Assembly (NCBI GenBank): GCA_964612595.1
Contig: CAZTFB010000001.1
Span: 3,058 to 67,057 of the forward strand
Direction: 5' to 3'
Source of the DNA: an uncultured Gammaproteobacteria bacterium
GTDB taxonomy: Bacteria; Patescibacteriota; Microgenomatia; UBA1406; HO2-37-13b
DNA length: 64,000 nt
In this document: in pieces, positions 4,592-32,647 of the stretch
Position numbering within the stretch: the stretch's first letter is position 1
How the letters are laid out: every line of letters begins with the position of its first letter
The notes under the pieces: generated by a model
Database searches by the model: none
What the model was told of the DNA's origin: nothing
Seen by the model: only the letters and a program-made list of their open reading frames with translations
Translations under genes and position numbers: made by a program

Positions 4592-4609
4592 CTCACTATT
4601 ATTGAAATG

Positions 4610-4692
4610 TTATCGTGCTTCGATACGCGAAAGCACCATGGAATTTTGAGTGTAGATGTAGCTTTATTATCGTGCATCGATGCACGAAAGCA
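4610..4692. repeat. Two 26-nt direct copies of a dyad-containing motif, 57 bp apart
   Basis: ttatcgtgcttcgatacgcgaaagca (4610-4635) versus ttatcgtgcatcgatgcacgaaagca (4667-4692). The second copy contains the perfect 16-bp palindrome cgtgcatcgatgcacg (4671-4686). Confidence 0.55.
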
Positions 4693-4695
4693 ATT

Positions 4696-4723
4696 GAAAA
4701 AGGTGGGGAAACGTAGAACCCCA
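4696..4723 (-). terminator. Rho-independent-type terminator after the sortase operon
   Basis: Minus strand reads tgggg-ttctacgttt-cccca followed by CCTTTTTTC, about 15 nt after the sortase stop. Confidence 0.45.
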
Positions 4724-4738
4724 TAGTTCGCAAACCCG

Positions 4739-9300: not shown

Positions 9301-12300
9301 CGATTTTAGTACAGTCAACATAACCTGAGAGACAGCTGTAAAGATCTATGTTCCATCCAAGAACAGCTGAGAGATCATCGGTTGATGCAATATCTCCATC
9401 GGCGTCTTCGAATTTGTAGCCAGATATGGAGCCTCTCTGTGTGTTGGTAAAGGTACAGGTTACATTCTCGCCTGGCTCAAGATTTATGGTTGCTACTCTA
9501 TTTTCAAGGCTAACAGTACTGGGGACTGAAGATTGGCCATCGCTACAAGTGAGGCCAGTAAGATCCCAACCATCAACTGCTGCTTCTGTAAAGGTATAAA
9601 CACCATTTACTAAACTAGGGATGGTTATGCTGTTTGAAAGTGTGTTGTCTGCATCGTCATCTAAACTAAAGCTTCCGGTCCCTGTGGCGGTGAAAGCGAA
9701 GTCTTGTGCGCTATTTGGATTTGCATCTTTAATGATGGTGATAGACCCACGAGCTACGTTGGTGAATGTACAGGTGACGGTTTCGCCAGTGTTTACGCTT
9801 AGATCATCTATAATTCTTCCATTTCCGGCTTGTTGATTGGTACATGAATATGTGCTGTCATACAGATCGCCGTTCACACCTGTATCTGGGCTTTCGACAA
9901 TATCATACTCACCGTCTGGAAGAATATGCTGGCTCGTTTGGTTGTGACCAAGTGTTGAGGATGCTGTGGCATACTCACCATCAACCGCCATATCCCAGAG
10001 GGATGTATCGTTGGTTGGGTTGAGGACTTTCTTAATAATTAATGTACCTCTTCCTTGGTTTCCAAAGTCATTTCCTTGTGAGTTTTGACCTGATTCTGCG
10101 ACTACTGTGTGGCATGTTGGACTTGATGTTTGTGTCCATCCGCTTTGTGCGACCTCACAAACAACGTATGTTCCAGGTCCAAGATTGGTGAAGCTGTAAT
10201 TACCATTCGCATCAGTTGTATCGCTGACTTCTCCCTGATCTAGCGTTTGATTATCATTTGTATCGATAAAAATAGTCCAACCCTGAAGTCCAGGTTCTTG
10301 GTCACGTGAACCGTTTCCATTTAGATCATTATATTTGGTGCCGGTTATGTCAATGTTTTCAAAGTTGGCGAAATCAACCTGAGTTTCTGCTCCACTTACC
10401 ATTCCAATTGGCGTTGGGGTAAGACTTTGTGGTCCATATGTTTGTGTCCACCCGGCTTGTTGTTGCTCTTTGACATAGTATGTATTGCCGGCAAGTAGGC
10501 CAGTGAATTCAAAGAAGCCATCTGAAAGTGTAGTATAGGTATTGAGTAGAGCACTTGTAACTCCATCATAAAGTTCAAATACCCAACCACCAAGCGTATC
10601 AAGAAGATCGTCAGCATCTAGTTGACCATCCCCATCGTTGTCTTGATATTTGTAGCCATAGATTTGTGCATATTTTGCGTTTCCAAAGTCATTGTCTGTA
10701 TAAGAATTTCCACTTTCGACGGTAACATCATAATATTTATATGCTGGATATGTTTGATACCATGTATTTGCGTCAAGAGTGCCTTCAGCTACAACATGGA
10801 TTCCTGGTGTGCAAACTTTAAAGCTATAATTACCATTTTCATCAGTAGTTGTTTGATCTTCTGATTGTCCTGATAGATTAATCGGCCAGTCAGCAACTGT
10901 TGGCTCGTCTTGATCCCATTCACCGTTACCATTAAGATCTTCCCATTTACTACCCGAGACGGTTGCACATGCAAAGTTGCCAAAGTAAACGGTTTGATCA
11001 GACGAGCTTGTAAGCTCGACATTTTGAAATAGTGGTGTGGTGTTAGACCAGTCAGTTTTCTGAGTTTCAGTTACCGTATATTGTCCTGGAAGTAGATCAT
11101 TAAACGTTGTACATCCATTTTGGTCGGTAACTTGAACTACATTACCTGGGGTCAAGGTCATTGTCCAGTCACCGAGTAAAGTGTCTCCTGTTCTATTGCC
11201 ATCTCCATTTTCATCTTCGTATTTACATGCAGTGATATCTCGAAGGCGTGTGTTATTAAAAGTACATGTTATCTGATCGTTTGGACCGACGGTAATGCCT
11301 GTTACACCAGTCGAGCCTGATGTTCCAATTGGAGCACCAGCAGCATTCGTACATGAAGCAGAAGTAAGGCTCCATCCAGTTGGAACTGTTTCAGATACAG
11401 CATATGTGCCTGTGTTTACAGATACAAATCCCGTAGTACCAGTATTTCCTACTGTAGTGATTTGTGGTGTTGAGGCTGAAGGACCGGATACACTGAAATC
11501 AAACGTTCCATTGTCACCAGAAGTATTTTTTACGACTTTGAGTTGACCTTGGTTTACAGTGTTGGTTATTGTGCAGACAATATCATCATCTGGATCTACA
11601 TCTACATTCAACGGTCCCGTACCTGATGAAGTAGCTACGACATTGGTTGTTCCTCTATCGACACATGTTATTGTTGAACTATAATTTGAAATTGTAGTTC
11701 CTGCACAAGCAGTTTCACCAACAGTGTGTGTAGCACCAGGGTTTGCATTCGTTCCTGCAGTGACGTTTACTATGCCAGTTGTTCCAGCATCACTTACACA
11801 AGCTGCTTCGGTTGTGCTGTTGACCTGAAGATTAAATGTTCCACTGTCATTGGAAGGAACAAGATCTTTAACGACCTCAATTTTTGCGAATTCTGGCACA
11901 GTAATTGGTACTGAGAATCCATCCTCACAATTACATTTTGAAGGAGCACCTGGAACTGTATCGAGTGGGCCGGTACATGCTGTTGCATTTTGTTCCCAGG
12001 TTGTACAATACGGAAGATTTAGATAGTTATTTGCATCTGGAATACAAGCGACAGTTAATGTCAGTGAAGGGTTCACTGGAGCTGCACTTGATATGTCTCC
12101 GCACACATTGCTGTCAAAGTTGTACCAAGGTGGTACAGGTGAGTATGGAAGTGTTGATATTGAACAGCTGCCAGATAATGCGCTTGATTGTCCCCCAGTT
12201 GCAAACCAAAGACCTACATTGTATCGTTGTGTAGCTGTAGATTGAACTTGCCAATCAGCTCTGAATGTTACTGTATCACTAGGTGAGGTACATCCATCAT

Positions 12301-13651
12301 CCAATACTTCAATGTTGGTTACATTTGCGATAGATACATCATTCGCAGTACAGTTAATAGGTCCGTCAACGAGTTCGTCTATGCAACTATTTTGTACAGT
12401 CTGCCCGCCAACTGGAGCTCCGGTTGGTCCAGCCGTAGGTGTTGCTGTAGGAACAGATGTGGGCGTGACTGTAGGTGTTGCTCCAGGCTCAGTAAAGAAA
12501 ACCTTTATCTGAACATGATCCAAGTTAACTAAGTTATTGCCTCCGCTCGTTCTTGCTCTAAGTCTAAAATTTCCATCTGAAAAATCATTGTAGCTCCACG
12601 CACGTCCCCAAGTGTCTGTAGCGCCACCTAAAACTATTTGTGAATCTGTGCCACTAAACGCGACAGGGTCTTCAGCAGTAAAGTTTAGACCGTTCCAAGA
12701 AAGTGAGATATGTAAGTCACGATTACCTGTTCGATTACCTTCTGTACGAACTTCTATACCGTCAATCGTTGATCCAGCGGGTATTCCAAAGGTAAAGTTG
12801 ACATAGTCAACTTGATCATTATTTGCATCGAAAACAGCGTAAGAATTATCTGAACTAAAAGCATTGTTTGGATTGGTAACGTTGATGACAGTGGTTGAAG
12901 CTGTTGGAGATTTATAATTAGTGTCGCTGTCAGTAAACGTTTTTCTCGCAACTAATTCGTTGGCTTCGTTGTATATATTGACCTCATAATTTGGTCGATA
13001 CATACCATCAAGCTGGTAGCTTGCGCTAAATTCACCTAGTTCATCGGTAGTTATGTATGTTTCAAACGTTACAGCAGGAGCATCTGAAGAAGAAATCACC
13101 ATTCTATACATAGTATGTGGAGAGAAGCCAGAGCCCTTTAGCAACACCATTTCTGTTGGTGCATAGTCTTCTTTATCAGTTACAACACTCGCATTACATC
13201 CGTTGAGCGAATCAGCATAACATTGATTAGATTCAACAACCGTTGACTCAACATGCGCATTTTCATCACTTACCGTAGGAACAACTTCCACAGTAGGCGT
13301 TGCTACAGAAGAGCTTGTCGGCTCAGATGGTTGTGATGTCTGTTCAGAAGGATTACTCGTGTTTTCTGAAGGTGAAGATGTGATCTCTTGAGTTGGTTCA
13401 ACTGTTGGCTCTGATGTTGGTTCTACCGATGGCTCCGCTGTTGGTTCTGAAGTTGGCGATTCTTCAACAGGGGTAACTTGTGATTCTTGGGTAGGTTCCG
13501 CTGTTGGTTCTGTTACTTCTTGAGCGATTACATTTGCGACTGGTAGTGGTTGTGATGTTAAGACGAGGGCGTAAGGCGCTATTGAGTTAAAAAGAATGAA
13601 AGCCGATGAGACGGCTGAGACAAATTTCTGAGCAGCTGTGTTGTATCTCAT
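6341..13651 (-). CDS. Giant (2436 aa) LPXTG-anchored repetitive surface protein/adhesin
   Basis: N-terminal hydrophobic leader. Pro/Thr/Glu-rich linkers. Many SdrD-B/Cna-B-like repeats (KYEDENGDGNR, KWEDLNGNGEWDQDEP, KYNDLNGNGSRDQEPGLQGW). C-terminal LPATG followed by a hydrophobic stretch and KKKKS. Confidence 0.9.
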   Translation of the reverse strand: MRYNTAAQKFVSAVSSAFILFNSIAPYALVLTSQPLPVANVIAQEVTEPTAEPTQESQVTPVEESPTSEPTAEPSVEPTSEPTVEPTQEITSSPSENTSNPSEQTSQPSEPTSSSVATPTVEVVPTVSDENAHVESTVVESNQCYADSLNGCNASVVTDKEDYAPTEMVLLKGSGFSPHTMYRMVISSSDAPAVTFETYITTDELGEFSASYQLDGMYRPNYEVNIYNEANELVARKTFTDSDTNYKSPTASTTVINVTNPNNAFSSDNSYAVFDANNDQVDYVNFTFGIPAGSTIDGIEVRTEGNRTGNRDLHISLSWNGLNFTAEDPVAFSGTDSQIVLGGATDTWGRAWSYNDFSDGNFRLRARTSGGNNLVNLDHVQIKVFFTEPGATPTVTPTSVPTATPTAGPTGAPVGGQTVQNSCIDELVDGPINCTANDVSIANVTNIEVLDDGCTSPSDTVTFRADWQVQSTATQRYNVGLWFATGGQSSALSGSCSISTLPYSPVPPWYNFDSNVCGDISSAAPVNPSLTLTVACIPDANNYLNLPYCTTWEQNATACTGPLDTVPGAPSKCNCEDGFSVPITVPEFAKIEVVKDLVPSNDSGTFNLQVNSTTEAACVSDAGTTGIVNVTAGTNANPGATHTVGETACAGTTISNYSSTITCVDRGTTNVVATSSGTGPLNVDVDPDDDIVCTITNTVNQGQLKVVKNTSGDNGTFDFSVSGPSASTPQITTVGNTGTTGFVSVNTGTYAVSETVPTGWSLTSASCTNAAGAPIGTSGSTGVTGITVGPNDQITCTFNNTRLRDITACKYEDENGDGNRTGDTLLGDWTMTLTPGNVVQVTDQNGCTTFNDLLPGQYTVTETQKTDWSNTTPLFQNVELTSSSDQTVYFGNFACATVSGSKWEDLNGNGEWDQDEPTVADWPINLSGQSEDQTTTDENGNYSFKVCTPGIHVVAEGTLDANTWYQTYPAYKYYDVTVESGNSYTDNDFGNAKYAQIYGYKYQDNDGDGQLDADDLLDTLGGWVFELYDGVTSALLNTYTTLSDGFFEFTGLLAGNTYYVKEQQQAGWTQTYGPQSLTPTPIGMVSGAETQVDFANFENIDITGTKYNDLNGNGSRDQEPGLQGWTIFIDTNDNQTLDQGEVSDTTDANGNYSFTNLGPGTYVVCEVAQSGWTQTSSPTCHTVVAESGQNSQGNDFGNQGRGTLIIKKVLNPTNDTSLWDMAVDGEYATASSTLGHNQTSQHILPDGEYDIVESPDTGVNGDLYDSTYSCTNQQAGNGRIIDDLSVNTGETVTCTFTNVARGSITIIKDANPNSAQDFAFTATGTGSFSLDDDADNTLSNSITIPSLVNGVYTFTEAAVDGWDLTGLTCSDGQSSVPSTVSLENRVATINLEPGENVTCTFTNTQRGSISGYKFEDADGDIASTDDLSAVLGWNIDLYSCLSGYVDCTKIDSATTDASGFYSFSNLVPDLYKVMEELVAGWTHLTTDELNVELVAGESDANNNFTNFKNVSVTVCKVIDRDGNTTTTNDQTPYTGWPVMLLEDGEVIDTQETGARTGCYTWSNLGPGHTYGVEEGTVNGYDAIGDTTHSFGLAQSGSQYSHTFYNQGRGTLIVQKMLNPTDDASLWDIDVTGDGVDEETTLGHNQSQEFDLPAGEYAVVENPDETVVEDIYDSSYACSNQQSGNGRNIDDITLSPGETVTCTFTNVARGTITVTKDVVPNDSTFWDFALKAGQQTVGSTSLADTESHTFTDLVNGEYVLSEETSELYATDIDCGVEGTASNQGSINFNLDPGESINCTYTNTRNTGKLIINKLLDEDGNLQTTDDRTDGVEWEFNVDGQSSDTPDLGPLSTDVNGEVTVDPLNTGTYNVGEVVEEGYKLLSAECTTGSQDGEIVYGVEVATDETATCTFINTRERGTVNVTKYHDVNADGTRDEGEEVLADWTINLDEDSELTGEDGEVTFNPVTGEYELSEDLPEGWIQSNIACSLDEEGIGSYNEENDSLSLTVGADQVIDCEIGNYQDGEIIVTKYSDDNGNGVWDKGEEAMGGWEMNLAQGESLKEQTTGEENGQTTFDDLTPGTYVLSEDQQKGWEQTAITCNVEETNPTVTPTVTGEPTATPTPGIFTGGLCHWNEGADKWNALAVEIDNPGHVGHELDFPYEGPREDNGHPDSQTGDDWCEENDPNQNFETQGLIDRVQAAEVDAIDEQIDTETVEVTSGQTVNCEVGNKPLIPELTIAKKNDTGGAPRVPGDIVTFTLTVTVAESSVEDTLVIDVPSEGFQYVGGSWTALKNGLPFIIPEPTYASPGTWSLGDLQIGDEIVLTYQAKVAATQDTGVYPDLAWSEGQSLGGEQVLALAQPEGFVDTNFVGTEVEILADNYINDSLDIRREEKREEGKVLGASTLPATGAATILALAALLMVAAGAGGVAYGLRLKKKKS

Positions 13652-13707
13652 AGTTTTGCTAAGAGGCCATTATATTACAGAATTGAAATTAATGCAAGTG
13701 CTTTTTA

Positions 13708-14040
13708 TTATACCTCCCCCAGAAGATCACGAAGACTTTTTGACTGTTGTTGCTTTCTTTCTTCAGTGGACTTTTTCTTTTCAGCGAGGGATTTTTTGAA
13801 GGCTTCAGCTCTCTGCATTTTTTCTTGGAACTTACCCACTTGTCCCTGGCTATCGACGAATCGTTTTTCACCAGTATAGAGAGGATGGGTAAAGGAGCTT
13901 ACTTCCACAGGAATGACGTGGTGCTTGACGCCATCGATGTCGATGGTTTGGTCAGAGGTCTTTGTTGAAGTGGAAAAAATCTGATGTTTTCCATCAACAA
14001 AAACGACTGGATGAACTTGTGGATGAATACCCTTTTTCAT
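13708..14040 (-). CDS. rpmE: Ribosomal protein L31 (with Lys/Glu-rich C-terminal tail)
   Basis: MKKGIHPQVHPVVF...HPLYTGEKRFVD is an L31 signature. Start chosen at ATG 14040, which removes the 18-codon extension overlapping prfA. Confidence 0.85.
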   Translation of the reverse strand: MKKGIHPQVHPVVFVDGKHQIFSTSTKTSDQTIDIDGVKHHVIPVEVSSFTHPLYTGEKRFVDSQGQVGKFQEKMQRAEAFKKSLAEKKKSTEERKQQQSKSLRDLLGEV

Positions 14041-14072
14041 ATTAAGAATGTGATTATAACAATCTTTGTTCA

Positions 14073-14759
14073 TTAACGCAACACTGTTTCCCACTTACCC
14101 TGGTCTATAATCGCAGAGAGATTATGATAGCTTTTTCCCGTGCGATGATCGGTAAGGCGGTTCTGTGGGAAATTATAGGTGCGAATTTTCTCTGCGCGAT
14201 CGCCTGTGCCGCGATCTTTTACATAGGAGTAAACGAGCCCGCGGCGCTCTTCATCAGCGAGCTGATAGAGTTTTGAGGCCAAGAGTTGGAGCGCAATTTG
14301 TCTGTTGGCCTGTTGGGTGCGCTCCTGGGAACAGGTTACCATAATGCCTGTTGGTTTATGGATAAGGCGGACAGCTGTAGAAACCTTATTAACGTTTTGT
14401 CCGCCGTGGCCGCCGGCTCTATAAAACTGCCAGTCAAGCTCATGCTCATTAACCTGCGATTGTGTTTCGGCAATAAACGGATAGACGACAATGACGGCGG
14501 TCGATGTATGGAGGCGGCCTCTTTTTTCCGTTGCGGGTATGCGTTGTACGCGATGCACGCCAGTCTCATTCTTAAAAAGTGTAAACGCCTCATTACCTTT
14601 TATGCGGATAATATTGTCATCAAGCCATGTGACGGCAAATTTTTCTTTTTCTGCAAATTTGAGATAGGAAGCGAGTAGATCCTTCATCCAAATCTTCGCT
14701 TCCTCTCCCCCGACGCCGGGATTTACTTCGATAATGGCAATACTGTTATTTATTTGCAT
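14073..14759 (-). CDS. prfA: Class-I peptide chain release factor, RF1-type, lacking the N-terminal domain (228 aa)
   Basis: [20 protein letters not shown] (a PxT tripeptide, as in RF1) and [11 protein letters not shown] (GGQ) are present. Only 12 nt separate its ATG from the hisS stop, so there is no room for a domain 1. Confidence 0.8.
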
Positions 14760-22619: not shown

Positions 22620-23307
22620 GTTGAGTAAGTTTTTTCTGTTGACGTAAGGCAATTTCTAGAACTATGCGGAAATATGGGACGAACAATGCAAAAATAAATA
22701 TCACTAAACCGATTGAAGGCATAGTTTTCATGCCCCCCTGTATCCATTTTAGCCAGTATGGAAGACCTTTTAGTCCAAAATGAATGATGGTAAATATATA
22801 CGCTATATAGCCTATTCTCAAAAGTCTCCTCCAACGTTGTCCGCCGATTTCGTGCACAGCATAATTATTCGAAATACTTGTCATAAAAGCGAAATACAAA
22901 AATGCCATCAGCGCAAATACGAACGATATGATATTTTTTTCATCTAGGTAATAGTCTGGAAAGGGAAATTCCTGGCGCATAACAACGAGCGAAAAAAATA
23001 CGTGAATAGTAGCTATGACAAATCCGGATACACCAACATGTTTTCTGAACATGATGTAGTGATCAAACGCATTCCAGAAATAACAGATCGCACTAAGCAA
23101 CATCGACAGTCCTATAAGGACGACTGCTGTCCACGCGGTGCCGATGTTAATAAGTTCAGAACCTGTAACGTGACGCTGACTAAAAAGCCCGAGTGTAATA
23201 AGTAGGTAAAGAATCGTACTGAATCCTATGGTTTTAAGCCATAATGATAATGACGGATTTTCGGGTATGTGTCGTTTGCCAGACTCGAATGTATCAGTGA
23301 ATGCCAT
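22606..23307 (-). CDS. Polytopic membrane protein (ferric-reductase/MsrQ-like fold suspected)
   Basis: 233 aa with ~6 hydrophobic helices and conserved-looking His residues in the helices. Assignment is weak. Confidence 0.4.
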   Translation of the reverse strand: MAFTDTFESGKRHIPENPSLSLWLKTIGFSTILYLLITLGLFSQRHVTGSELINIGTAWTAVVLIGLSMLLSAICYFWNAFDHYIMFRKHVGVSGFVIATIHVFFSLVVMRQEFPFPDYYLDEKNIISFVFALMAFLYFAFMTSISNNYAVHEIGGQRWRRLLRIGYIAYIFTIIHFGLKGLPYWLKWIQGGMKTMPSIGLVIFIFALFVPYFRIVLEIALRQQKKLTQHEAI

Positions 23308-23331
23308 ATACTAATATTGTAGCACGTTTAT

Positions 23332-24159
23332 TTATAGGCCGTGAACTGAAAGATGAAAGTTTCCTGTACGAAGTCGTGGAAGTATATATCGGTCTGAGAG
23401 ACAGTGTTTTGTTCCTTTTCTATCGGTAAAAGCAGCATCGAACTTTTGCTCTGCGAGAATATTAATGACTGTCTCCCCTGTTCTTCCGTAAGGGTATATG
23501 AATATTTTTCTGGAACCAGGAATGCGTTTTTCTAGCTGTTCTTGGGCAACAGTCACTTGCTTGAAGATGGTATCTGTGTTTGTACCATGAAGTGATTGGT
23601 GTGACCAGGAGTGGTTGTAGAAATGTATAAATCCTGAGTCGTGCATAATTTTAATTTGTCCCCATGATAGTTGATTATAGCTACTAGCAAACCCGGTAAC
23701 CATGCCTATGTTTATTGGCACATCGTTTCGCTTAGCGATGGGATACGCGTAAGAGTAGTTATTAACATAGCCGTCATCGAGGATAATTGCAGCAACTTTT
23801 CCAGGGTCAGTTCGTGATAGCAGGCTGTCAACGATTTTTTCGAGTGAAACGAGTGTATAGCCTTTTGCTTTTAAGTAGTGGATATGGGATTCAAAGTTTC
23901 CAGGAGCAACGGTCAGATTTCGTTGGTTATCATCCTCGGCGTTGTCGAAGGGTTGGATATGATGGTAAAAAAGAACGGGAGCGTCGATACAGAAGTCTGG
24001 AATGGGTGTTGGTGTATAAGTTGGCTTCTGTATTGAGTCAGCAAGTTTGTTGGTGATCACAGGGCTGATAACTCTGTGGGCGCGCTGAACCACGCGCAGT
24101 GCGACTACCCCACCAAGTATAAAACCGATCAGGCCAATGATGAATAGATTTTTGTTCAC
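23332..24159 (-). CDS. Polysaccharide deacetylase (NodB-homology) with N-terminal anchor
   Basis: ILDDGY...YNHSWSH motifs and an N-terminal TM segment. Confidence 0.8.
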   Translation of the reverse strand: MNKNLFIIGLIGFILGGVVALRVVQRAHRVISPVITNKLADSIQKPTYTPTPIPDFCIDAPVLFYHHIQPFDNAEDDNQRNLTVAPGNFESHIHYLKAKGYTLVSLEKIVDSLLSRTDPGKVAAIILDDGYVNNYSYAYPIAKRNDVPINIGMVTGFASSYNQLSWGQIKIMHDSGFIHFYNHSWSHQSLHGTNTDTIFKQVTVAQEQLEKRIPGSRKIFIYPYGRTGETVINILAEQKFDAAFTDRKGTKHCLSDRYILPRLRTGNFHLSVHGL

Positions 24160-24706
24160 TAACTATATTATAGCTATGATGAGAAGATTTATCGGCAGTC
24201 ATTGACTACTTTCGAACTTTTCTTCGATTTTATCAAAAAACTGGTACAGCTCCCACAACTAGAAGAAGATATGCGTGATTATGCCTTATTGATTCAAAAT
24301 CAGGATGGAAGCAGGATGTTCTTTGTATTGTGATGTAATAATGTCAGACCAGAGTAAACCTACTAGCGACAAGCCTTGTATAGTTCAATTCGTAGCTATG
24401 CTGATGAAGTTATCCAACGATTAGTCGAACCATTCAAAAGCAAGAATGGAAATGTGGCTCTGAGAGCGTGTAAAACATTACTCAATATGACACTCCCAGA
24501 TGTGAAAAGTGTGGAAGTCACTCAAAGCTACTAAAACCGTCCCTGAGACTACCTTCTCGAATATGACTGCGGAGCAGAAAAAAGCCTATGCCCACGAGTT
24601 GATAGAAATTGGTGAAACATAACTCGGTATAGGTCGCTACTCCCCAAGAGACATAAAAAATGGTATAATGCAACGAGTTACAAATTAGATAAAAAGGAGA
24701 TACCTT

Positions 24707-24910
24707 ATGTCTGAACAACCACCAGTTGACCACAGGGTACTAGAAGTAACAAGTGGTGAAATTATTTCCATTCCAGCGTTAGCAAACAAGTCACCATTTC
24801 AATGTTTAGCTGATATGGCAGAGCCTTATATGGCTACTGCTAGAAGATACAAAATTCCTCAACTTACTTTTTCTGTTGGACAATATGAAGTAACAGTAAG
24901 AAACAAGTAG
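24707..24910 (+). CDS. Hypothetical 67-aa protein (island-borne)
   Basis: RBS AAAGGAGA 7 nt upstream, TGGTATAAT-type -10 at ~24661, and a clean terminator downstream. Confidence 0.5.
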   Translation: MSEQPPVDHRVLEVTSGEIISIPALANKSPFQCLADMAEPYMATARRYKIPQLTFSVGQYEVTVRNK

Positions 24911-24931
24911 TTTCCGTTTTTTCATTGATAA

Positions 24932-24958
24932 GAGCCGACTAACCCTCGGCTTTTTTTG
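24932..24958 (+). terminator. Rho-independent terminator
   Basis: agccga-ctaaccc-tcggct followed by T7. Confidence 0.7.
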
Positions 24959-25091
24959 TTTCATTGAAGCGGGTATAATGCTACGTATAGATACTTTTTG
25001 AGATACTCGTATGTCGTAAGACTATAAACAACAAGTCTTTGAGATTGCCAAGTCAATCATTTACTTCAAGTTGGAATAAGATGGTAAGCTT

Positions 25092-26801
25092 GTGCCTGAT
25101 GGTAAACCACCTGTGTACGTGATTTATGATTGTAAATCGACTAGAGGCAAGAAGAAAGATGACAAGGGCAAAGATTTAGAGCGACAGGAAGGCTTAATCC
25201 CCGATTAGATAAAGGATTGCCAGAAGTACGCAAAAGAACTGGGTATTGTTCCCGCTCAGATCTTCAAAGAAGAAAAGTCAGCCCGCAAGTTAGCCAATCG
25301 TTAAGTGTTTGAAGAAATGATGGATGGCATTCGAGCCAATAAGTACACGAGTATTATCTGTTGGCATCTTGACCGCTTAGGTCGAAACATGTAGGGTGCA
25401 GGTGAAATCATAGATCTATTCGACCGAGCCATCATCAAAGATCACAAGTTCCCACAGTTTTCATTCCAAAATGATCCAAATGGATTACTCACGCTCGGAC
25501 TACAGTTTTTACTCGCCAAAGCCTACAGTGATAGCTTGTCACGCAATGTCACATGGGTCAATGTCAACATTATCTCCGAGGGTAAAGCTATCGGCGATAA
25601 AGCACTTCGAGGTTATAAAGTAGAAAACAAGAGAATTCGCCCCGATGGTCGAAACTACGACCTCATCAAACAAGCCTTCCAGATGGCAGTAGAAGGGGTG
25701 ACGCAAGAAGATATTGCCAACTGGCTGAATACAGAGGGATATAAACAGAGGGGTAAAATCGTAGCCATGAACAAGCAGAAAGTCTTCGAAATGTTGTCAG
25801 ACCCCTCGTACACGGGTTGTTACATCTACTGCAAAACAATGGTGGATTTGATCAAACAAGACGCTCTGTTCCAGCCAATGATCACCGACTTAGAGTTTTT
25901 GAGACTTCGCAATGTGGTAGATCGTAAGTGTAGTTACATCAAAAAAGGCATGACTAACCAGATGTTCAGCAAAATGGTGTTTTGCTGGTACTGTGGCAAC
26001 CTGATGACACTAGCTATATCACAAAGTAGTGGCAAGTCAAAAACACGTTATCTGCGTATCAGATGCTCCAAAGCAACCCGTGAATCTACCAAAGTCAAAG
26101 GACTCCGAGAAACACGAGGGTACGTCATTTTTGACTTTACTTACGAAGTATTGAATGGCGGAGTCGGTATAGGTAAACTTTGTTTGATCAATACATCAAA
26201 CAGACAAGTGAGTATCTCAAGGTCAAGAGCGATGACTTGGCCAAACAACAACGTCAGATCAAACGTCAAATGACCGAGGTTGAACAGAGTATTAGTGAAC
26301 AATCTCTGATTCTGGCAAAATCAGAAGGTAAAACCATTACTGAAACTAAAAACGAATAGAAACCTTCGAAATCAGTATGACAGCCTCGAAGTCAAGTATG
26401 CTGAAACCAAGTCACAACGGATCGACATTGACTCATTATCCAAAGAGCACGAGATGAGCTACGAGGAGTTTTTGAACTTCTTCAACAACATTGAACTGAC
26501 GCTGAAAAATGATAGAAACCACTATTTAGTTAACAAGGTGATCAGAATGTTCTTTTTGAACTTTATTTACGAGGACAGAAAAATACTGACACATCAATGG
26601 AATCCTGACTTCGAAAGACTCCTAAAACTGCATTCTATCATGCTAAGTCGAGATAAGGCGATAAAGATCGAACTACTAAAACCAGTGTACGAGTCAGTTA
26701 TCTCTAACTGGGATTATAGCTCATATGACAAAAATCTGCTCTATTTATCGCTACAAAACCAAGCTCAAATAAAGTATAATCAGGTTAGGTATGAATACTA
26801 A
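25092..26801 (+). pseudogene. Large serine recombinase, degraded
   Basis: Frame 0 reads ...VYVIYDCKST...LIPD*IKDC...ANR*VFEE...CWHLDRLGRNM*GAGEIID..., with in-frame TAG 25206, TAA 25302 and TAG 25392. It is collinear with the recombinase at 28484. There is at least one frameshift near 26170-26280 and further stops before the C-terminal segment (ORF 26454-26801). Confidence 0.8.
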
Positions 26802-27132
26802 TGGGAAGATGCAAATCTTCTATGGAGTAGACAATCCAGCTAGTATCAAGAAGCCTAACCAAGCTGGCAACATACCATCAAACACTACAAGTGCGCCAGA
26901 TGTCGCACATTCCCCTCAACAGAGACCTCCTCAACCTTCAAATCAACCAACAATCACTCAGCTTGTACAGACAATGAAACATGTCAAAACAGACACGCCA
27001 GAGGCAAAGCTCAACAAAGATAGCATGGTCGACAATCACGGCAATCGAATAACCTTTAATGACGAGGCAGTACGCTCTCAAACATTCAAAGGCGTGGAAG
27101 ATCCGAGCAGGCTTCCTATTAAGAAGAAGTGA
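26791..27132 (+). CDS. Hypothetical 113-aa Pro/Gln-rich protein
   Basis: Intact ORF starting at the end of the degraded recombinase. No family recognised. Confidence 0.4.
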   Translation: MNTNGKMQIFYGVDNPASIKKPNQAGNIPSNTTSAPDVAHSPQQRPPQPSNQPTITQLVQTMKHVKTDTPEAKLNKDSMVDNHGNRITFNDEAVRSQTFKGVEDPSRLPIKKK

Positions 27133-27147
27133 TGCGAACTATGTACT

Positions 27148-27672
27148 ATGACAACACAGGCACAAATATTAGCAAATAGGATAAACGCACAAAGTGCAGG
27201 AGTCAAAACTGATGCAGGTAAAGATATTTCAAAGTATAACACTATTCGTCACGGTGTACTTCAAAAGACTTTAATTGCCACAGAAAAAGATGAGGCTCAA
27301 ACCATGCTCTCACTTCTTTTAGCAGAGTATGAGCCACATGGAGTCACTGAGGACTTACTCATTGAGTCTATGGTACTTGCCTATATGCGTATGCAACGAG
27401 CTATACAAGCTGAAAAAGCCTTTTTAACACAGGGTATGATTATGCCGGTAATCCGCTATGCTTCAGAGGAAACCGACAAAACCGACAGTGTTATTCAGGT
27501 TGGTAACTCGGAGTACTCAATACTGGACAAAACTTACATGCGATACATCACAGCTTGTGAGAGGCAGTTCTATAGAGCTTTGCATGAACTTCAACGAGTA
27601 CAATCCTTGCGCAAAGGAAGTAAACCAACATCTATAGCAGTTGATGTGTTTCGAGATTTAGCAGATCAATAA
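27148..27672 (+). CDS. Hypothetical 174-aa protein
   Basis: Intact ORF 15 nt after the previous one. Predicted helical. No family recognised. Confidence 0.45.
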   Translation: MTTQAQILANRINAQSAGVKTDAGKDISKYNTIRHGVLQKTLIATEKDEAQTMLSLLLAEYEPHGVTEDLLIESMVLAYMRMQRAIQAEKAFLTQGMIMPVIRYASEETDKTDSVIQVGNSEYSILDKTYMRYITACERQFYRALHELQRVQSLRKGSKPTSIAVDVFRDLADQ

Positions 27673-27707
27673 TTGGATTTGTTTGGTAAAATAAGGATAA
27701 TAATACT

Positions 27708-28385
27708 ATGGATAATTTTGACATGCCAAGACCACGATTAGGATCTGAAAGGCCTGCTCGTACGCAAACAGAAGTGCTTTATGAGAGACAGAGCTGGAAG
27801 TTGGAGGGTGAAAAAATGTCGGAGTTTGCTAGGCTGATTAGTGATATTTCTGCACTATCACCTCGTAGATTAACTGAAGCTGATATGGATATTGTTCAAG
27901 GTCAAAGCTTTCGAGGAACTTCTTTATTCTTAACACTACTCTCGTTATATGCATCAGGGAATATCCAAAGCATAAATGATTTTAGTGTTTATAATCCTGA
28001 AAATAGAGGTATACAGATAAAGGCCTTCTTGGCGTCACCAAATAAATATGTAGCAGGTGGTTATGCTAATAAGTATTTGGAACAGGATAACACAAGTTTG
28101 GTGCGAGCTTTTGTAGATATTGAGGGTAAGATTTTTGACAGATTACTAGCAGATAACGCATTAGACCATATAGATTTTCCACCAGCATTATTACAGCCAG
28201 TGTTATTAGGTTTCAATAACTCACCATGGAGAAATGAGTATGAGCATAAAGCTTATGAAGGTGTCTTGTATGGCGCAAAACCTAATAGAAGCACTATGCA
28301 ATCTTTGGGAAATATAACAGGTATATCTGAGGATGATCTTGCAAATAAATATCCAATATTGGCACAACAGTTTGAAAAAGAATAA
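27708..28385 (+). CDS. Hypothetical 225-aa protein
   Basis: Intact ORF followed by a terminator. No family recognised. Confidence 0.45.
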   Translation: MDNFDMPRPRLGSERPARTQTEVLYERQSWKLEGEKMSEFARLISDISALSPRRLTEADMDIVQGQSFRGTSLFLTLLSLYASGNIQSINDFSVYNPENRGIQIKAFLASPNKYVAGGYANKYLEQDNTSLVRAFVDIEGKIFDRLLADNALDHIDFPPALLQPVLLGFNNSPWRNEYEHKAYEGVLYGAKPNRSTMQSLGNITGISEDDLANKYPILAQQFEKE

Positions 28386-28431
28386 ATAAATGGTTGATAC
28401 AACCAGCCAGAAATAAATAAAATACAATAAA

Positions 28432-28466
28432 CCGTTCTTTTGGTTGTATCAAAAGGGCGGTTTTTT
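28432..28466 (+). terminator. Rho-independent terminator
   Basis: ccgttcttttg...caaaagggcgg stem (two G-U pairs) followed by T6. Confidence 0.6.
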
Positions 28467-28483
28467 ATTGGGTCAATAAATAT

Positions 28484-30063
28484 ATGTACGACGATGTCAT
28501 TAATTATTCAAAACTCAGGTATGTGCTTTACGCTCGTAAATCCACGGAAGACGAAACACGACAAGTAAAATCTAAAGAGGATCAAATCGCAGAGTGTAAA
28601 ACTTTTGCAGAACGCATACCACTTCGTATCGTTGACATTCTTGAAGAGTCAAAATCTGCCAAGCGTCCAAATAACCGTCCAGTTTTTACTCAAATCTTCA
28701 AAGATATTCGTACAGGTAAATATGATGGGATACTAGCCTGGCATCCAGACCGTTTAGCACGCAATATGCTTGAAGGGGGTCAGATTATAGATATGATTGA
28801 CGAAGGGATCATTAAAGACCTCAAGTTCGTTACTCACCACTTCACCAAAGATGCTAACGGAAAAATGTTACTCGGAATGGCGTTTGTGTTATCCAAACAA
28901 TACAGCGACAAACTATCACAAGATGTTACTAGAGGAGTTAAAAGTGATTTTGCAGAAGGTAAATCACCAGCACCAAAGTATGGTTATTTTCGTGACGAGA
29001 GCGGATTAAATCGTCCAGATGGTCGAAATCATGAGTTGATATGCGGTGCATGGAGTATGCGTGTAAAAGGTGACTCCATTCGATTAATAGATACTTAAAC
29101 GATCAGGGATTTTATCGTGAGATAAAATCGACTAACCGAAAAACTTTTATGACCAAACAAAAACTCAGCGATATGTTTAAAGATAGTTTTTATTATGGAT
29201 TGATGCAACAAGCTCAACAAACTACGGATTTACGCCTCATTTATGATTTTGTACCAGCAACTACTGAGGAGGACTTTATCACCATCCAGCAAATGTCATA
29301 TCGTAGGATCAAACCATCAAGCCCACATAGAGATAACTATTATCCGTTTAGATTGATGATTTTATGCTACTACTGTAATGAGTCTATGCGTGTTGCACCT
29401 TCCACAAGTGGAACAGGCAAGAAAAGATACTTGTATGCCAGATGCGACAACAAAAGTTGTGCACGCCTTAAAAAATCCATCAGAGTCAAAGTTATTCTTG
29501 ATTTCGTTACAGAGCTGTTAAAGGACGGCTTAAACTTTAAAGAAAAAGAATATCAACAATACCTAGATGGCATGAAATACCTCTCAGATGACCGTAAAAT
29601 CAGTCTACGAGGCGAGTTAAATACCAAACGAGGATTACTTAAACGCAAAGAACGAGAGGTATCAGAGTCCAGCGTAGCCATTCTCAAACTTAATCCCAAA
29701 AGTGTTATTTACCAACAGAACGAAAAACATATTGCTGAACTAGACAATGACTGTAAAGTTCTAACTAAGGATATAGCTACACTTGAGGAACAACTAAAGA
29801 AGTCCGAGACTGAACCTATGACTCTTGAAGAGTTTGCGAACTTATCAAAAAATGCCGCCACCATAGTCCAATCTGCTGATGCAATAGGTAAAGATATGAT
29901 TTGCCGTCATATCTTTGCGAACTGGACAGTTGATGAAGAGAAAGTGGCGTCTTATCAACTAAAAGAGCCGTTTGCCACCCTCTTAAAACAGAGGCAATTC
30001 CTATTTGGTCGGGGTAGGCGGACTCGAACCGCCGACCTCGTCGTCCCGAACGACGCGCGCTAG
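28484..30063 (+). pseudogene. Large serine recombinase split by one frameshift (~29070-29080)
   Basis: The N-terminal resolvase domain (YARKSTEDE...WHPDRLARN) ends at 29098. The shifted frame continues SINRYLNDQGFYREIKS...MTKQKLSDMF..., collinear with the degraded copy. Zn-ribbon CYYC...C..KSC and a coiled coil follow. The last ~19 codons are the antisense of tRNA-Pro. Confidence 0.75.
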
Positions 30064-30082
30064 CCATCTGCGCTATACCCCG
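30006..30082 (-). tRNA. tRNA-Pro (anticodon CGG), CCA encoded
   Basis: CGGGGTA/TACCCCG acceptor, GCGC D-stem, CGTCG-TTCGGGA-CGACG anticodon arm, GGCGG-TTCGAGT-CCGCC T-arm, and ACCA 3' end. Confidence 0.93.
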
Positions 30083-30101
30083 TGTGAAAAACAAGTATAT
30101 C

Positions 30102-30617
30102 CTATTGCTTGCCGAATGAAGCCTTATTTTCCATTGTTTTGTCAGGCATTTTGCGCTTCTCTTGACCCCTACTTGCTTTCGTAACTGGTTCGTCGCCACC
30201 AGCCATAGCTTGTGCTCGTTGAGCTGCCTCAATCCTCTTCATCTCCTCCTCCTCTGCTTCAGCTTGTTTTCGTTCGTCTTCTTTTCTCTTTAAATAGTCG
30301 CGAGCTTCTTGTTCCTCTTTTCGCATAAAGTTCATTTGCGCCTTCAGAGCATCAAGTTCGCTTCTTGTTGCATCAAGCTTTGGCTTGTCTTGCTCACTAA
30401 ACGCAATACCAAGCTGTGCGCGTATTTCCTCATTAAATGACGTGTAGTTATGTTGTTCAGGTTTTTTTTCCGTCTTCGGTTTTGGTCCAAATGCTTGTTC
30501 TAAAAGGTACTCAGGAAGTTTTGAGAAGTTTTCGCGTGCTTTTTCGACTGATCGTTCTCGCAACTGCTCTAATTTTTCAGTTGCTGTATCGGCAATCTTT
30601 TGTTGTATGTTTCCCAT
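30102..30617 (-). CDS. Hypothetical charged coiled-coil protein
   Basis: 171 aa, Glu/Lys/Arg/Ala-rich (KRKEDERKQAEAEEEEMKRIEAAQRAQ). Confidence 0.45.
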   Translation of the reverse strand: MGNIQQKIADTATEKLEQLRERSVEKARENFSKLPEYLLEQAFGPKPKTEKKPEQHNYTSFNEEIRAQLGIAFSEQDKPKLDATRSELDALKAQMNFMRKEEQEARDYLKRKEDERKQAEAEEEEMKRIEAAQRAQAMAGGDEPVTKASRGQEKRKMPDKTMENKASFGKQ

Positions 30618-30628
30618 AATGAGTAGTG

Positions 30629-30940
30629 TTAAATTCCCATCATTGCCTTACCACGTTCTGACATACGTTCAATGTCCCATGGTGGATCAAACACAAGATC
30701 GACATACACTTCGTCGACCCCATCAAGCTCTAAAACATTCCTCTGAATTTCTTTTTCAATGATGGGTAACAATGGGCAGCCAATTGTCGTAAGGGTCATT
30801 TTTACGGTAACCTTTCCCTTTTCGTGCGTTACACCATACACAAGTCCCAAATCAACTATTGAGATATAGAGCTCTGGATCAATTACGTTCTCGAGTTTTT
30901 TCATGATTTTGCTCTTTATATTGCTTGTTTTTACCGTCAT
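30629..30940 (-). CDS. DUF59/SufT-like Fe-S assembly-related protein
   Basis: VIDPELYISIVDLGLVY...TLTTIGCP motif. Start set at MTVKTS (ATG 30940) to avoid overlap with the divergent rnj. Confidence 0.75.
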   Translation of the reverse strand: MTVKTSNIKSKIMKKLENVIDPELYISIVDLGLVYGVTHEKGKVTVKMTLTTIGCPLLPIIEKEIQRNVLELDGVDEVYVDLVFDPPWDIERMSERGKAMMGI

Positions 30941-30973
30941 ATCTGCATTATACATGGTGTATACTAGGTTCGT

Positions 30974-32647
30974 ATGTATCGAGTACGCTTTGTTCCGCTT
31001 GGTGGCATCATTGGTGTGACCAAGAATATGTATGTCTATGAACTGTATAACGACGATAGACTTCAGGATATTATCATCATAGATTGCGGCATTGGTTTCC
31101 CACGCGAACAGGAGTTTGGGGTTGACCATGCTATTCCAGATATTTCATACCTTTTAGATAAGAAGGATAAAATACGCGCTATTTTATTGACGCATGGTCA
31201 CGAAGATCATATTACTGCACTGCGTTTTCACTATGAGACTCTTGGCAAACCTCCTGTATATGCAAGCAAGCTAACGTCAATGCTTGCGCAGCATAAATGT
31301 GATGAATTTAATGTGAAGCTGCGCATGAATTTGATTAACTTCGACAATACCTATCATTTGGGAGGATTTAAGGCAAAGTTTATTCGTATGACGCATTCTA
31401 TTCCTGATACCACGCATATTTTACTTAAAACACCTATCGGTTCATTCTATCATGGTAGTGATTTTAAGATGGATTTAACACCTCCTTTCGGATATGCGCC
31501 TGATTTTTATGAAATTGCAAAGGCAGGTAAAGATGGTGTGCTTGCTCTTATGTCAGATTCTTTAGGATCAGACAGAGAGGGATTTACCCTTTCAGAAAGC
31601 ATTGTCGGTAAAACATTCGAGGATGAAATCCGCTCAACAAAAGGTCGATTTATTATGACAACTTTTGCAAGCAATATTTCTCGTGTGCGACAGTGTGCTG
31701 AGGCAGCAGTGAAACTTAATCGAAGAGTATGTTTGCTTGGCCGTTCGATGAAAGAGATTACGAAGCTTGTAAAAGATATCGGCTACTTCCCTATTCCGCC
31801 TAAGTTCCTTATTGATGAACGACAGCTCTCAAAATATAAACCACACGAGATTTGCATTATTGCAACGGGATCTCAAGGGCAGTATGGTTCTGCACTTTCT
31901 CGACTTGCAACAAATCAAAACAAGTTTGTAAGGATCCAAAAGGGAGACAAAGTGCTCTTTTCATCTGATCCTATCCCAGGAAATGAAGAGGAAGTATATG
32001 ACATTATCGAACATTTATACTTGCTTGGCGCGGATGTCCGCTATTCTGATGTTGCCGAACAACTCCACGCATCAGGCCATGGAAGCCAAGGCGATATGTT
32101 GCTCCTGATGCGTTTAACATTACCTAAAACACTTATTCCTATTGGCGGCACAATTAGACACCAGCGACTATATCTTGATTTGACAAAGCAGATGGGCTAT
32201 CAGGATAAAGATGTCTTTTTATTGCGCGAAGGAGAGACGGTGTGGTTTGATCAAGGCGGAAGAACATCGCTTGGTGATGTTATTGTAACGAAGAATGTGT
32301 TTGTTGATGCATATGGCGTAGGGGATGTTGGGGATACAATTCTGCGCGATAGAATGGCGTTATCGACAGAAGGTATTGTTATTGGAATATTAAAAGTCGG
32401 GCGCGACAATATATTGGCTGAAAAACCGGAATTTACCTCGCGCGGATTTATCCATGGTGCCACGGGCACCGATACAAGTAGCAAGGATAAAATTTTCGAT
32501 GGCGCCGCGGAGCTTATTGGAAAGGTTTTCGATCAAACCCGCGGCACAACGCCACTTAAGAAAGAATTGGTGAATCAATTAGAGAAATATTTCTTCAGAG
32601 CTACGAATAAACGCCCTCTTGTCGTGCTCGAGACAATACAGGTATAA
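30974..32647 (+). CDS. rnj: Ribonuclease J (beta-CASP metallo-beta-lactamase)
   Basis: 557 aa with PLGG...GKNMYVYE, HGHEDH and the beta-CASP region. Confidence 0.9.
   Translation: MYRVRFVPLGGIIGVTKNMYVYELYNDDRLQDIIIIDCGIGFPREQEFGVDHAIPDISYLLDKKDKIRAILLTHGHEDHITALRFHYETLGKPPVYASKLTSMLAQHKCDEFNVKLRMNLINFDNTYHLGGFKAKFIRMTHSIPDTTHILLKTPIGSFYHGSDFKMDLTPPFGYAPDFYEIAKAGKDGVLALMSDSLGSDREGFTLSESIVGKTFEDEIRSTKGRFIMTTFASNISRVRQCAEAAVKLNRRVCLLGRSMKEITKLVKDIGYFPIPPKFLIDERQLSKYKPHEICIIATGSQGQYGSALSRLATNQNKFVRIQKGDKVLFSSDPIPGNEEEVYDIIEHLYLLGADVRYSDVAEQLHASGHGSQGDMLLLMRLTLPKTLIPIGGTIRHQRLYLDLTKQMGYQDKDVFLLREGETVWFDQGGRTSLGDVIVTKNVFVDAYGVGDVGDTILRDRMALSTEGIVIGILKVGRDNILAEKPEFTSRGFIHGATGTDTSSKDKIFDGAAELIGKVFDQTRGTTPLKKELVNQLEKYFFRATNKRPLVVLETIQV

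Follow-up and report, generated by a model that had tools for sequence, protein, structure and literature searches.

Two small recombinase elements at a tRNA-Pro gene

The stretch of DNA analyzed here (hereafter the window) comprises 64,000 nucleotides of contig CAZTFB010000001.1 (assembly GCA_964612595.1), from a genome of the Patescibacteria (candidate phyla radiation, CPR). Abutting a tRNA-Pro(CGG) gene, it carries a 5.8-kb island (24193-30009) in which two elements, E1 and E2, stand in tandem, each with a gene for a large serine recombinase (LSR), rec1 and rec2 respectively. Comparison with related loci leads us to propose, with a probability of about 0.78, that this is an array of two mini LSR elements at the 3' end of the tRNA gene, and that the attachment site of the elements (attP) lies inside the recombinase gene, which would be split by integration. 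This reading is based on the anatomy of the junctions, a 5-bp offset between paired half-sites, the coding conservation of a detached C-terminal exon (C-exon), an empty site in siblings, a different element in the same host, and recurrence throughout the family. An initial annotation of the window had already described two small tandem elements at one tRNA-Pro, each ending in an LSR that reads into the tRNA side, and this part of it was borne out, related elements being abundant and empty sites having been found.

E2 (26649-30009, 3361 bp) consists, from left to right, of a C-exon, the three open reading frames (ORFs) ORF-113, ORF-174 and ORF-225, a terminator-like hairpin, and rec2. E1 (24193-26648, 2456 bp) shares this layout of C-exon, cargo, terminator, and recombinase, but in a decayed form in which the cargo is reduced to a short remnant and rec1 is a pseudogene (Table 1). 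The limits first assigned to the elements (24170-26800 and 26790-30005) have thus been revised, with the E1/E2 border moving ~145 bp to the left.

When its single frameshift is corrected, rec2 (28484-30063) encodes a 526-residue LSR; its final 19 codons, GRGRRTRTADLVVPNDAR and the stop, lie antisense to the tRNA-Pro(CGG), in line with the initial annotation. The catalytic domain is recognized by Pfam (PF00239, E = 4.6e-21, residues 14-160) and contains the motif YARKST, which provides the Y-x-R-x-S context and in which R18, K19, and S20 are invariant in 22 family members; the matches to PF07508 (19.8 vs a cut-off of 21.1 bits) and PF13408 (21.8 vs 25.3 bits) both fall just below the curated cut-offs. 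An AlphaFold2 (AF2) model of the reconstituted protein, with a mean predicted local distance difference test (pLDDT) score of 77.6, displays the standard LSR domain order. Foldseek aligned it with the full-length SPbeta, Bxb1, and phiC31 integrases over ~540-610 columns (E = 6.5e-19 to 3e-13), at a sequence identity of ~14% to the solved LSR structures. The frameshift is identical in three independent Logan assemblies and is therefore real in that population. Integrated recombinases are often broken by a single frameshift, the position of which differs from copy to copy (29070-29095 in the window, ~4005 in locus L083, ~706 in L101, and ~9978 in L102), which fits post-integration decay and not a programmed shift.

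As for rec1, the three in-frame stops reported initially (TAG 25206, TAA 25302, and TAG 25392), the R-to-C change that turns YARKST into YDCKST, and the later frameshifts were all seen. Its ends, in contrast, had to be redrawn. The pseudogene begins not at 25092 but at ~25012, in agreement with an N-terminal extension typical of its subfamily, a part in which we found extra stops, and its family-homologous portion stops not at 26801 but at 26648, since 26649-26801 corresponds to the C-exon of E2. The best rec1 relatives in a search of 1.84 billion representative proteins, at 46% and then 36-40% identity, are LSRs of 540-570 residues, which have the same N-terminal extension and antisense-tRNA tails. 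With rec2, as with every member of its clade, rec1 shares ~30-35% identity. The two genes therefore belong to different subfamilies and represent independent arrivals. That they might instead be local tandem paralogues of which one copy decayed is suggested by their collinearity, common orientation, and shared element layout. Nevertheless, rec1 is only ~35% identical to rec2 while rec2 has more than 100 relatives at 52-79%, the nearest rec1 relatives carry an N-terminal extension absent from rec2, and both the C-exons and the cargo of the two elements are unrelated. On these grounds an in situ duplication, which the initial annotation had named as a possible refutation of its reading, is scarcely credible.

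None of the cargo ORFs (ORF-113, ORF-174, ORF-225, and those of E1) matched a family in Pfam, PHROGs, PADLOC, or NCBIfam, and the same databases revealed no replication or transfer gene in the elements. The E1 cargo ORFs, of which the one of 67 aa is preceded by a purine-rich Shine-Dalgarno-like run, have no homologues among the fetched loci. Recombination directionality factors (RDFs) are too diverse to be recognized by sequence; none was recognized among the element genes, where the conserved ORF-113 and ORF-174 are without a family match.

Table 1. Features of the tandem array and its flanks (window coordinates)
Feature	Position	Strand	Remarks
Host polysaccharide deacetylase gene	23332-24159	-	Left chromosomal flank of the array; Pfam PF01522, E = 1.3e-18
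Host-side (B-arm) flank of the E1 left junction	24160-24192	+	Between deacetylase start and core
attL of E1	24191-24217	+	Core (A)TCG 24191-24194; P' arm 24193-24217, TCGAAC at nt 20-25 from core C
E1 detached C-exon	24193-24333	+	RQSLTTFELFFDFIKKLVQLPQLEEDMRDYALLIQNQDGSRMFFVL then stop; no start codon at junction
E1 cargo remnant	24334-24929	+	ORFs 24376-24534 (52 aa) and 24707-24910 (67 aa)
Terminator-like hairpin	24930-24954	+	Upstream of rec1; same layout in E2
rec1 pseudogene	25012-26648	+	N-part of an LSR of a second subfamily; stops, frameshifts near 26180-26270 and 26360
E1/E2 junction, hybrid attP-like site (E1 P arm + E2 P' arm)	26647-26673	+	Core GTCG 26647-26650; TCGAAC 26668-26673, nt 20-25 from core C
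E2 detached C-exon	26649-26801	+	RDKAIKIELLKPVYESVISNWDYSSYDKNLLYLSLQNQAQIKYNQVRYEY then stop; fused in frame to the rec1 remnant
E2 ORF-113	26791-27132	+	Conserved core gene of E2-type elements; start overlaps C-exon stop
E2 ORF-174	27148-27672	+	Conserved core gene; ~67-74% aa identity in L085, L087, L088, L096, L097
E2 ORF-225	27708-28385	+	Variable cargo; replaced by other genes in L083, L084, L085
Promoter-like site	28394-28423	+	Between cargo and rec2; consensus match only
Strong terminator-like hairpin	28429-28463	+	Between cargo and rec2; consensus match only
rec2 N-part	28484-30009	+	~508 codons: catalytic domain, recombinase domain, zinc ribbon, coiled coil; one frameshift ~29070-29095
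tRNA-Pro(CGG), target	30006-30082	-	ARAGORN and Rfam; body host-derived
attR of E2	30008-30029	+	Core GTCG 30008-30011 (tRNA positions 74-71); B' arm 30010-30029, TCGAAC at nt 15-20 from core C
Antisense-tRNA tail of rec2, integrated state	30010-30063	+	RGRRTRTADLVVPNDAR then stop

Element ends and att-site geometry

The siblings L091-L095, as the initial annotation had anticipated, have an empty tRNA-Pro site. They are syntenic with the window on both sides (~75-78% nucleotide identity), and in them 490 bp without a recombinase separate the tRNA from the deacetylase gene, which is also syntenic with L098-L100. The empty site of L091 (attB) has nothing but (G)TCG, at tRNA positions 71-74, in common with attR and attL, and we have therefore placed the crossover there. 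As a consequence, the tRNA body stays host-derived and the element supplies only the CCA end and the trailer side of the tRNA-Pro(CGG), which is 100% identical to that of L083 and 93% identical to that of the empty-site sibling L091. The encoded CCA end (TGGTCG) is supplied by the P arm of the element in the window (30006-30011) and in L083; CCA is encoded neither at the empty site of L091 (8770-8776) nor at the L084 and L085 junctions.

The left ends were examined by comparing the window with five elements of the E2 type: L083, which occupies the same tRNA-Pro(CGG) at the same locus; L084, at a tRNA-Pro(CGG) of a different host; L085, a solitary element at a tRNA-Pro(TGG) with a host MOSC gene to its left; and the integrated copies L096 and L097, at tRNA-Pro(GGG) and tRNA-Pro(TGG) respectively. 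In all of them homology to the window begins exactly at 26644-26649, and there is no conservation to the left of GTCG. The shared left end, GTCGAGAT(G/A)(G/A)(A/G)GCGAT(A/T)AA(G/C)(A/C)TCGAAC..., resembles the tRNA end (GTCGGGGTAGGCGGAC-TCGAAC) but with a 5-bp insertion. The host T-arms differ between these elements, each T-stem 3' strand pairing with its own 5' strand. Since the left end remains constant despite these differences, it is borne by the element and is not a displaced host tRNA end.

This bears directly on the model of the initial annotation, that of a classical tRNA island, in which the element replaces the tRNA 3' end and the displaced host end is found at the far border, a 16-mer at 26777-26792 that matches the tRNA at 9/16 positions being its decayed relic. 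The stacking of elements at the tRNA, with the older one farther off, agrees with that model, as do exact 18-22 nt repeats of the tRNA 3' end upstream in distant tRNA-Leu relatives, detected by strict local alignment. However, the 16-mer is at chance level, as 18 positions in 24001-30000 and 214 in the whole window score at least 9/16, and it lies within the E2 C-exon. In the window, the same strict alignment of the whole tRNA against the 10 kb upstream gave no significant match, and a generic repeat search of 23-31 kb returned chance-level pairs only. There is indeed a tRNA-like sequence in E2, at 26647-26673, but with its 5-bp insertion it is common to elements at differing T-arms and is under coding constraint, so it is not host-derived, and each host tRNA has a T-stem whose two strands pair with each other. 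We consequently regard displacement of a host tRNA end as very improbable: the tRNA-like left ends are element-borne and coding, and the junctions have only a 3-4 bp core in common.

The 5-bp insertion has a precise geometrical meaning. In all pairs examined, TYGAAC is located at nt 20-25 from the core C in every P' arm, vs nt 15-20 in every tRNA. For a Listeria LSR, whose attP half-site measures 25 bp, the zinc-ribbon motif covers bp 16-24, and in attB it lies 5 bp closer to the center (PMC3783163). By this rule, the tRNA acceptor and T-arm correspond to the B' half-site, and the left end of the element to the P' half-site. When all loci were scanned for a core match combined with this motif at offsets from -3 to +11, there were 11 matches at +5 vs 0-4 at each other offset. 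Nine of these 11, including elements at tRNA-Leu, tRNA-Ile, and tRNA-Ala, lead into a frame that stays open for ~45-50 codons and is in phase with the recombinase. In 23001-31000, the pattern TCG-N17-TYGAAC occurs only twice, at 24190 and 26646, vs an estimated chance expectation of ~0.06. Of the attL-like half-sites that the initial annotation had suggested looking for near 24170 and 26790, both are thus present, at 24191-24217 and 26647-26673, but the second is not near 26790. A transition-tolerant alignment to the tRNA ranks 26630-26700 in the top 1.7% of windows and the left end of L083 in the top 0.7%, vs the top 28% for 24160-24240; the left end of E1 was recognized only through the offset pattern.

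The 5-bp offset is also compatible with recombination centered on the T-loop, GTCG then being the outer motif. This alternative was first hinted at by the tRNA-Leu repeats. For the Pro elements it was dismissed on three grounds: the insertion is carried by the arm at the left junction, the functional tRNA contains the arm that lacks it, and the reading frame passes through GTCG without a break.

Beyond the att arm, the left ends are coding. From the core CG, the frame is open for exactly 50 codons in 6/6 E2-type elements (RDGAIKLELLKPVYES.IS.WDY.SFD.NLL.LSLQNQAQ.KYNQ.RYEY), with a stop that overlaps the beginning of the first cargo gene. The boundary and its surroundings lack a start codon, and in most loci an in-frame stop occurs 4-15 codons upstream. 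Over codons 11-50, which are outside the att arm, the ratio of nonsynonymous to synonymous substitution rates (dN/dS) was calculated for 15 pairs; 14 of them gave values of 0.12-0.47, and the remaining one gave 0.70. The phase of the C-exon relative to GTCG is the same as that of the recombinase at the GTCG of the tRNA, and when the two halves are joined at the core they form one ORF of ~560 codons (...LKQRQFLFG followed directly by RDKAIKIELL...). The occurrence of the offset pattern at 24190 lies 31 nt from the deacetylase start. The E1 C-exon that it opens is a 46-codon frame beginning with RQSLTTFELFFDF and stopping at 24333, in the phase set by the core, and carries the same x5-[LF]-E-L pattern as the C-exons of other elements; the flank to its left (24160-24192) shows no conservation with any compared element. 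The same arrangement is found in more distant tRNA-Pro elements (L002, L003, L005, L007, L009, L010, L043, L046, and L049) and at tRNA-Leu, tRNA-Ile, and tRNA-Ala (L014, L016, L017, L035, L038, and L042). Altogether, the attL frame equals the attR recombinase frame in ~20 loci and four tRNA types. Since the left end continues the recombinase frame for 46-50 codons, without a start codon and with purifying dN/dS, attP appears to lie inside the recombinase gene. We consider this anatomy of the junctions probably correct. It also accounts for the end first assigned to rec1, because at the hybrid junction between the P arm of E1 and the P' arm of E2 the rec1 remnant reads on into the E2 C-exon down to 26801.

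Distribution of the family and history of the array

More than 100 database proteins are 52-79% identical to rec2. They have 510-555 residues, and in every one [SG]RG precedes a short C-terminal tail that is variable and in several cases is an antisense T-arm (e.g., ...SRGERTRTSDLCFPKAAL). Recombinase homologues come from Microgenomates, Woesebacteria, Roizmanbacteria, Saccharimonadia, and related groups. We scanned 48 genomic loci holding a near full-length relative for tRNA overlap; 41 of these have a tRNA on the minus strand whose start lies 10-60 nt short of the recombinase ORF end. The tRNAs concerned are those for Pro, Leu, Ser, Met, Lys, Gln, Val, Ile, His, and Ala, and most loci agree in the phase at which the recombinase frame enters the tRNA. 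The antisense T-loop usually provides the recombinase stop, a TGA located 22 nt inside the tRNA; with a T-loop of sequence TTCGAA, the stop is mostly found at 58 nt. Elements of the family measure 2.5-7 kb, the LSR being their only recognizable gene. Our search of the open-access full-text literature found no description of these CPR elements.

Other arrays and remnants display the same features. L020 (8568-14708) is a second tandem array with the same logic: its upstream recombinase (9929-11651) is frameshifted, decayed, and reads into the C-exon of the next element, and its downstream recombinase (13247-14643) is frameshifted and ends in tRNA-Leu(CAG). Like L020, the loci L101, L102, and P0191 have unsplit tails, at array junctions or in remnants, and there the recombinase tail reads straight into the C-exon. 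In IMG/VR, L104 and L105 (6001-7626), which are 30%-identity relatives on predicted-viral contigs of 13.6 and 38 kb, end inside tRNA-Gly(GCC), and larger, possibly prophage-like elements may thus use the same arrangement. L103, a rec1-type relative at tRNA-Val(CAC), has a second tRNA-Ser(GGA)/tRNA-Val(CAC) pair 5.5 kb upstream and another tRNA-Ser copy (5109-5284, 6578-6661, and 10781-10856), and the offset pattern revealed no P' arm or C-exon in it.

Several observations weigh against our interpretation. The free element was looked for and not found. The predicted E2 attP junction (CTCTTAAAACAGAGGCAATTCCTATTTGGT joined to CGAGATAAGGCGATAAAGATCGAACTACTA), the chromosome junction expected after loss of E2 (CTCCTAAAACTGCATTCTATCATGCTAAGT joined to CGGGGTAGGCGGACTCGAACCGCCGACCTC), and that expected after loss of both elements (CTATATTATAGCTATGATGAGAAGATTTAT joined to CGGGGTAGGCGGACTCGAACCGCCGACCTC) are absent from all fetched loci. 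An E2-type attP pattern had no match (0) in metagenomes of the Joint Genome Institute (JGI) and in IMG/VR, where the relatives are likewise integrated, at tRNA-Gly; a P' pattern search retrieved two further integrated copies; and a search with a profile that spans the junction recovered nothing beyond short fragments and three unsplit array remnants. The circular junctions for which the initial annotation had recommended a search thus did not turn up: the sequence sets searched contain neither an excised circle nor an intact P-P' site of a single element. Two Logan contigs from different runs (L081 and L082, the latter beginning at 26463) both end inside the tRNA-Pro at window position 30062, but these shared ends are probably assembly-graph branch points and not evidence of excision. 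Moreover, since both recombinases are pseudogenes, neither element is now mobile on its own. Geometry raises further points. The 5-bp offset is seen on the P'/B' side only, with no mirror copy of TYGAAC on the P and B arms, and the dyad symmetry of the reconstructed attP around the core is modest (0.40-0.46 vs a background of ~0.25) and is equaled by a peak inside P'. In the tRNA-Leu elements L014 (4723-4744) and L016 (6204-6225), the first 22 nt of the tRNA 3' end recur, exactly or nearly so and with no +5 offset, ~175-190 bp upstream of the attL core. The copy in L014 follows a terminator hairpin, and such extra copies are not predicted by a crossover at the acceptor end. Finally, all family proteins inspected in databases are of the short (truncated) form, and the AF2 model renders the C-exon as two helices of low confidence (pLDDT 38-67), so its role is left as a hypothesis.

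The last two points would also suit an account in which the anatomy is right but the 46-50 codon left frame is not recombinase, being conserved through constraint at the DNA level (att site, promoter, or leader) or as a separate peptide, with the tRNA-coded tail as the natural end of the enzyme. The short database proteins look intact, no unsplit full-length gene was found outside arrays and remnants, and the first 25 nt of the frame are the att arm. Such an account has difficulty, however, with a dN/dS of ~0.2 outside that arm, with a C-exon of constant length whose stop overlaps the start of the next gene, and with the lack of a start codon combined with stops just upstream. The agreement between attL and attR frames across ~20 loci and four tRNA types, and the unsplit tails of L020, L101, L102, and P0191 that read through into the C-exon, also speak against it, and we find it unlikely, preferring a C-exon that belongs to the recombinase.

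How the array was built can be partly read from L083 (1-6400), which we compared with window positions 26648-31085. Its host flank is 100% identical to that of the window over 1046 nt (the tRNA and 973 nt of host genes to the right), but its element is only 75-80% identical to E2 and has a different cargo, encoding a PGDYG protein and a 301-aa ORF. Within one host species, this site is therefore occupied by different elements of the E2 type. The B arms of such elements show no conservation from host to host, and target recognition thus seems to rest on the tRNA half-site, in which case a newcomer could use the right junction of a resident (P arm and tRNA) and push it inward. Serial integration at one att site, as initially proposed, is upheld in this sense: the elements are stacked and, as it predicts, the more decayed one is farther from the tRNA, whereas the mechanism through a relic of the tRNA end is not supported. 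We infer that E1, with its LSR of a different subfamily, was the first to arrive, which fits its heavier decay. E2 would then have entered the right junction of E1, as the conserved tRNA-side half-site permits, pushing E1 inward and fusing the rec1 remnant to the E2 C-exon; since then, E1 would have decayed heavily and E2 acquired one frameshift. A caution comes from L083 itself, in which attL is preceded by a helix-turn-helix (HTH) gene and a 258-aa ORF, and by neither rec1 nor the deacetylase gene, which makes the order of arrival in the species less certain.

The junction between E1 and E2 has exactly the P-P' structure expected within a cointegrate, which raises the possibility that a heterodimeric E1-E2 circle, formed by attP x attP recombination or by replication, was integrated in one step. 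We view this as very unlikely, since E1 is far more decayed than E2, the presence of a different E2-type element at this tRNA in the same host species points to turnover at the tRNA-proximal position, and attP x attP recombination is not expected between recombinases of different subfamilies, given the general site selectivity of LSRs (PMC3783163). Two successive integrations are the history we favor.

Elsewhere in the window, the 16S rRNA gene (54629-56549, minus strand) is 1921 nt long vs a 1533-position model, which implies ~390 nt of insertions and is typical of CPR bacteria. A tRNA-Ala(CGC) gene lies just downstream (53589-53660), and no match to 23S rRNA reached the gathering threshold within the window. 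The GC fraction of positions 4001-5000 is 0.52, vs a window average of ~0.41.

Proposed mechanism and known systems

On the basis of these comparisons, integration would proceed as follows. In the free element, attP would sit in the recombinase frame ~46-50 codons before the true stop. Its P' half-site would mimic the tRNA sequence, with the T-loop-like TYGAAC placed 5 bp further out, the zinc-ribbon offset, and the tRNA acceptor and T-arm would serve as the B' half-site. A crossover in the (G)TCG core, tRNA positions 71-74, would leave the tRNA body intact. The ~508 codons of the recombinase would end up beside the tRNA, their frame continuing into the antisense tRNA until a stop, and the C-exon, without a start codon, would be shifted to the opposite (left) end of the element. 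The existence of a circular form, and of a full-length protein made from it, we infer from comparison of the integrated copies.

The functional meaning of the split is a hypothesis. In the circle, a single promoter could drive one transcript running through the recombinase, across attP, and through the C-exon and the cargo, to end at the terminator that immediately precedes this promoter. At full length (~560 residues), the enzyme would insert the element at the tRNA acceptor end, and integration would swap its last 50 residues for a tRNA-coded tail and uncouple the cargo from the promoter. On this reading, these recombinases could be a large "self-splitting" family of serine integrases in Patescibacteria, in which the state of the element would govern which enzyme form is made, and with it directionality or activity, as well as cargo expression. 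To this reading as a whole we attach less than even odds. Two element states would then correspond to two enzyme forms, and the link between state and directionality is open to experiment.

Several consequences would follow. The proposed splitting logic is spread over Patescibacteria (Microgenomates, Saccharimonadia, Peribacteria, and Gracilibacteria) and over many tRNA types, and elements of 2.5-7 kb seem to be a common source of gene turnover and of pseudogene arrays beside tRNA genes in the very small CPR genomes. The att site is compact, one half of attP being both coding and a mimic of the tRNA acceptor and T-arm with a 5-bp offset, which makes att sites readable directly from genome sequence. 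Serine integrases are valued for genome engineering, and CPR bacteria are very hard to manipulate. If our reading is true, these enzymes could provide a ready-made tRNA-targeting integration tool for CPR bacteria, requiring of the target little beyond a conserved tRNA end.

In common with the LSRs of A118/LI, Bxb1, phiC31, SPbeta (SprA), and TP901-1, the recombinases described here have the catalytic Y-x-R-x-S context followed by the recombinase domain, zinc ribbon, and coiled coil in that order, and they share short att sites with a tiny common core and an attP half-site that is 5 bp longer than that of attB, with its outer motif shifted by 5 bp. They differ in that their targets are the 3' ends of tRNA genes, that attP appears to lie inside their own ORF so that a C-terminal exon would be removed, and that one half-site is a coding tRNA mimic without a recognizable mirror motif on the other arm. 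The size of the elements (2.5-7 kb) and the ~14% identity to solved LSRs also set them apart. Classical tRNA islands are bounded by direct repeats of the tRNA 3' segment, which usually measure 15-60 nt; the elements of the window, in contrast, have no significant upstream copy of the tRNA end and share a core of just 3-4 bp, and the enzyme beside the tRNA is a serine-type recombinase and not a tyrosine integrase. In the integration-dependent immunity of mycobacteriophages, reportedly described by Broussard and colleagues in 2013, attP is said to lie inside the repressor gene, so that integration alters the C-terminus of the protein; there a tyrosine integrase cuts a repressor gene, whereas here it is the recombinase's own gene that is cut.

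The tycheposons of Prochlorococcus, in which 910 of 937 recombinases are of the tyrosine type and part of the tRNA is duplicated (bioRxiv 10.1101/2020.12.28.424599), are similar in that repeated integration at one tRNA builds arrays, decayed copies are distal, and occupancy varies within populations. Tycheposons are larger, however, and often carry replication genes, none of which are recognizable in the window elements. The closest parallel for the split gene is offered by the "suicidal" tyrosine integrases of the SSV1 type (SSV1, pTN3, and pT26-2), in which attP lies in the integrase gene, the target is a tRNA, the gene is partitioned to both ends of the element, and trapped copies decay; according to a 2021 review, such self-disrupting recombinases are exclusively archaeal (PMC8371274). 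The elements described here, as judged by comparison, have the same attP within the integrase gene, the same kind of target, and two gene pieces at the element ends. While the archaeal enzymes are tyrosine recombinases (Phage_integr_3), those of Patescibacteria are serine recombinases, and only the last 46-50 of ~560 residues are detached, so that all known catalytic and DNA-binding domains stay in one piece. These elements thus share the gene-splitting logic of the SSV type but are not members of it and, if our reading is true, they would give the archaeal suicidal integrases their first counterpart in bacteria and among serine recombinases.

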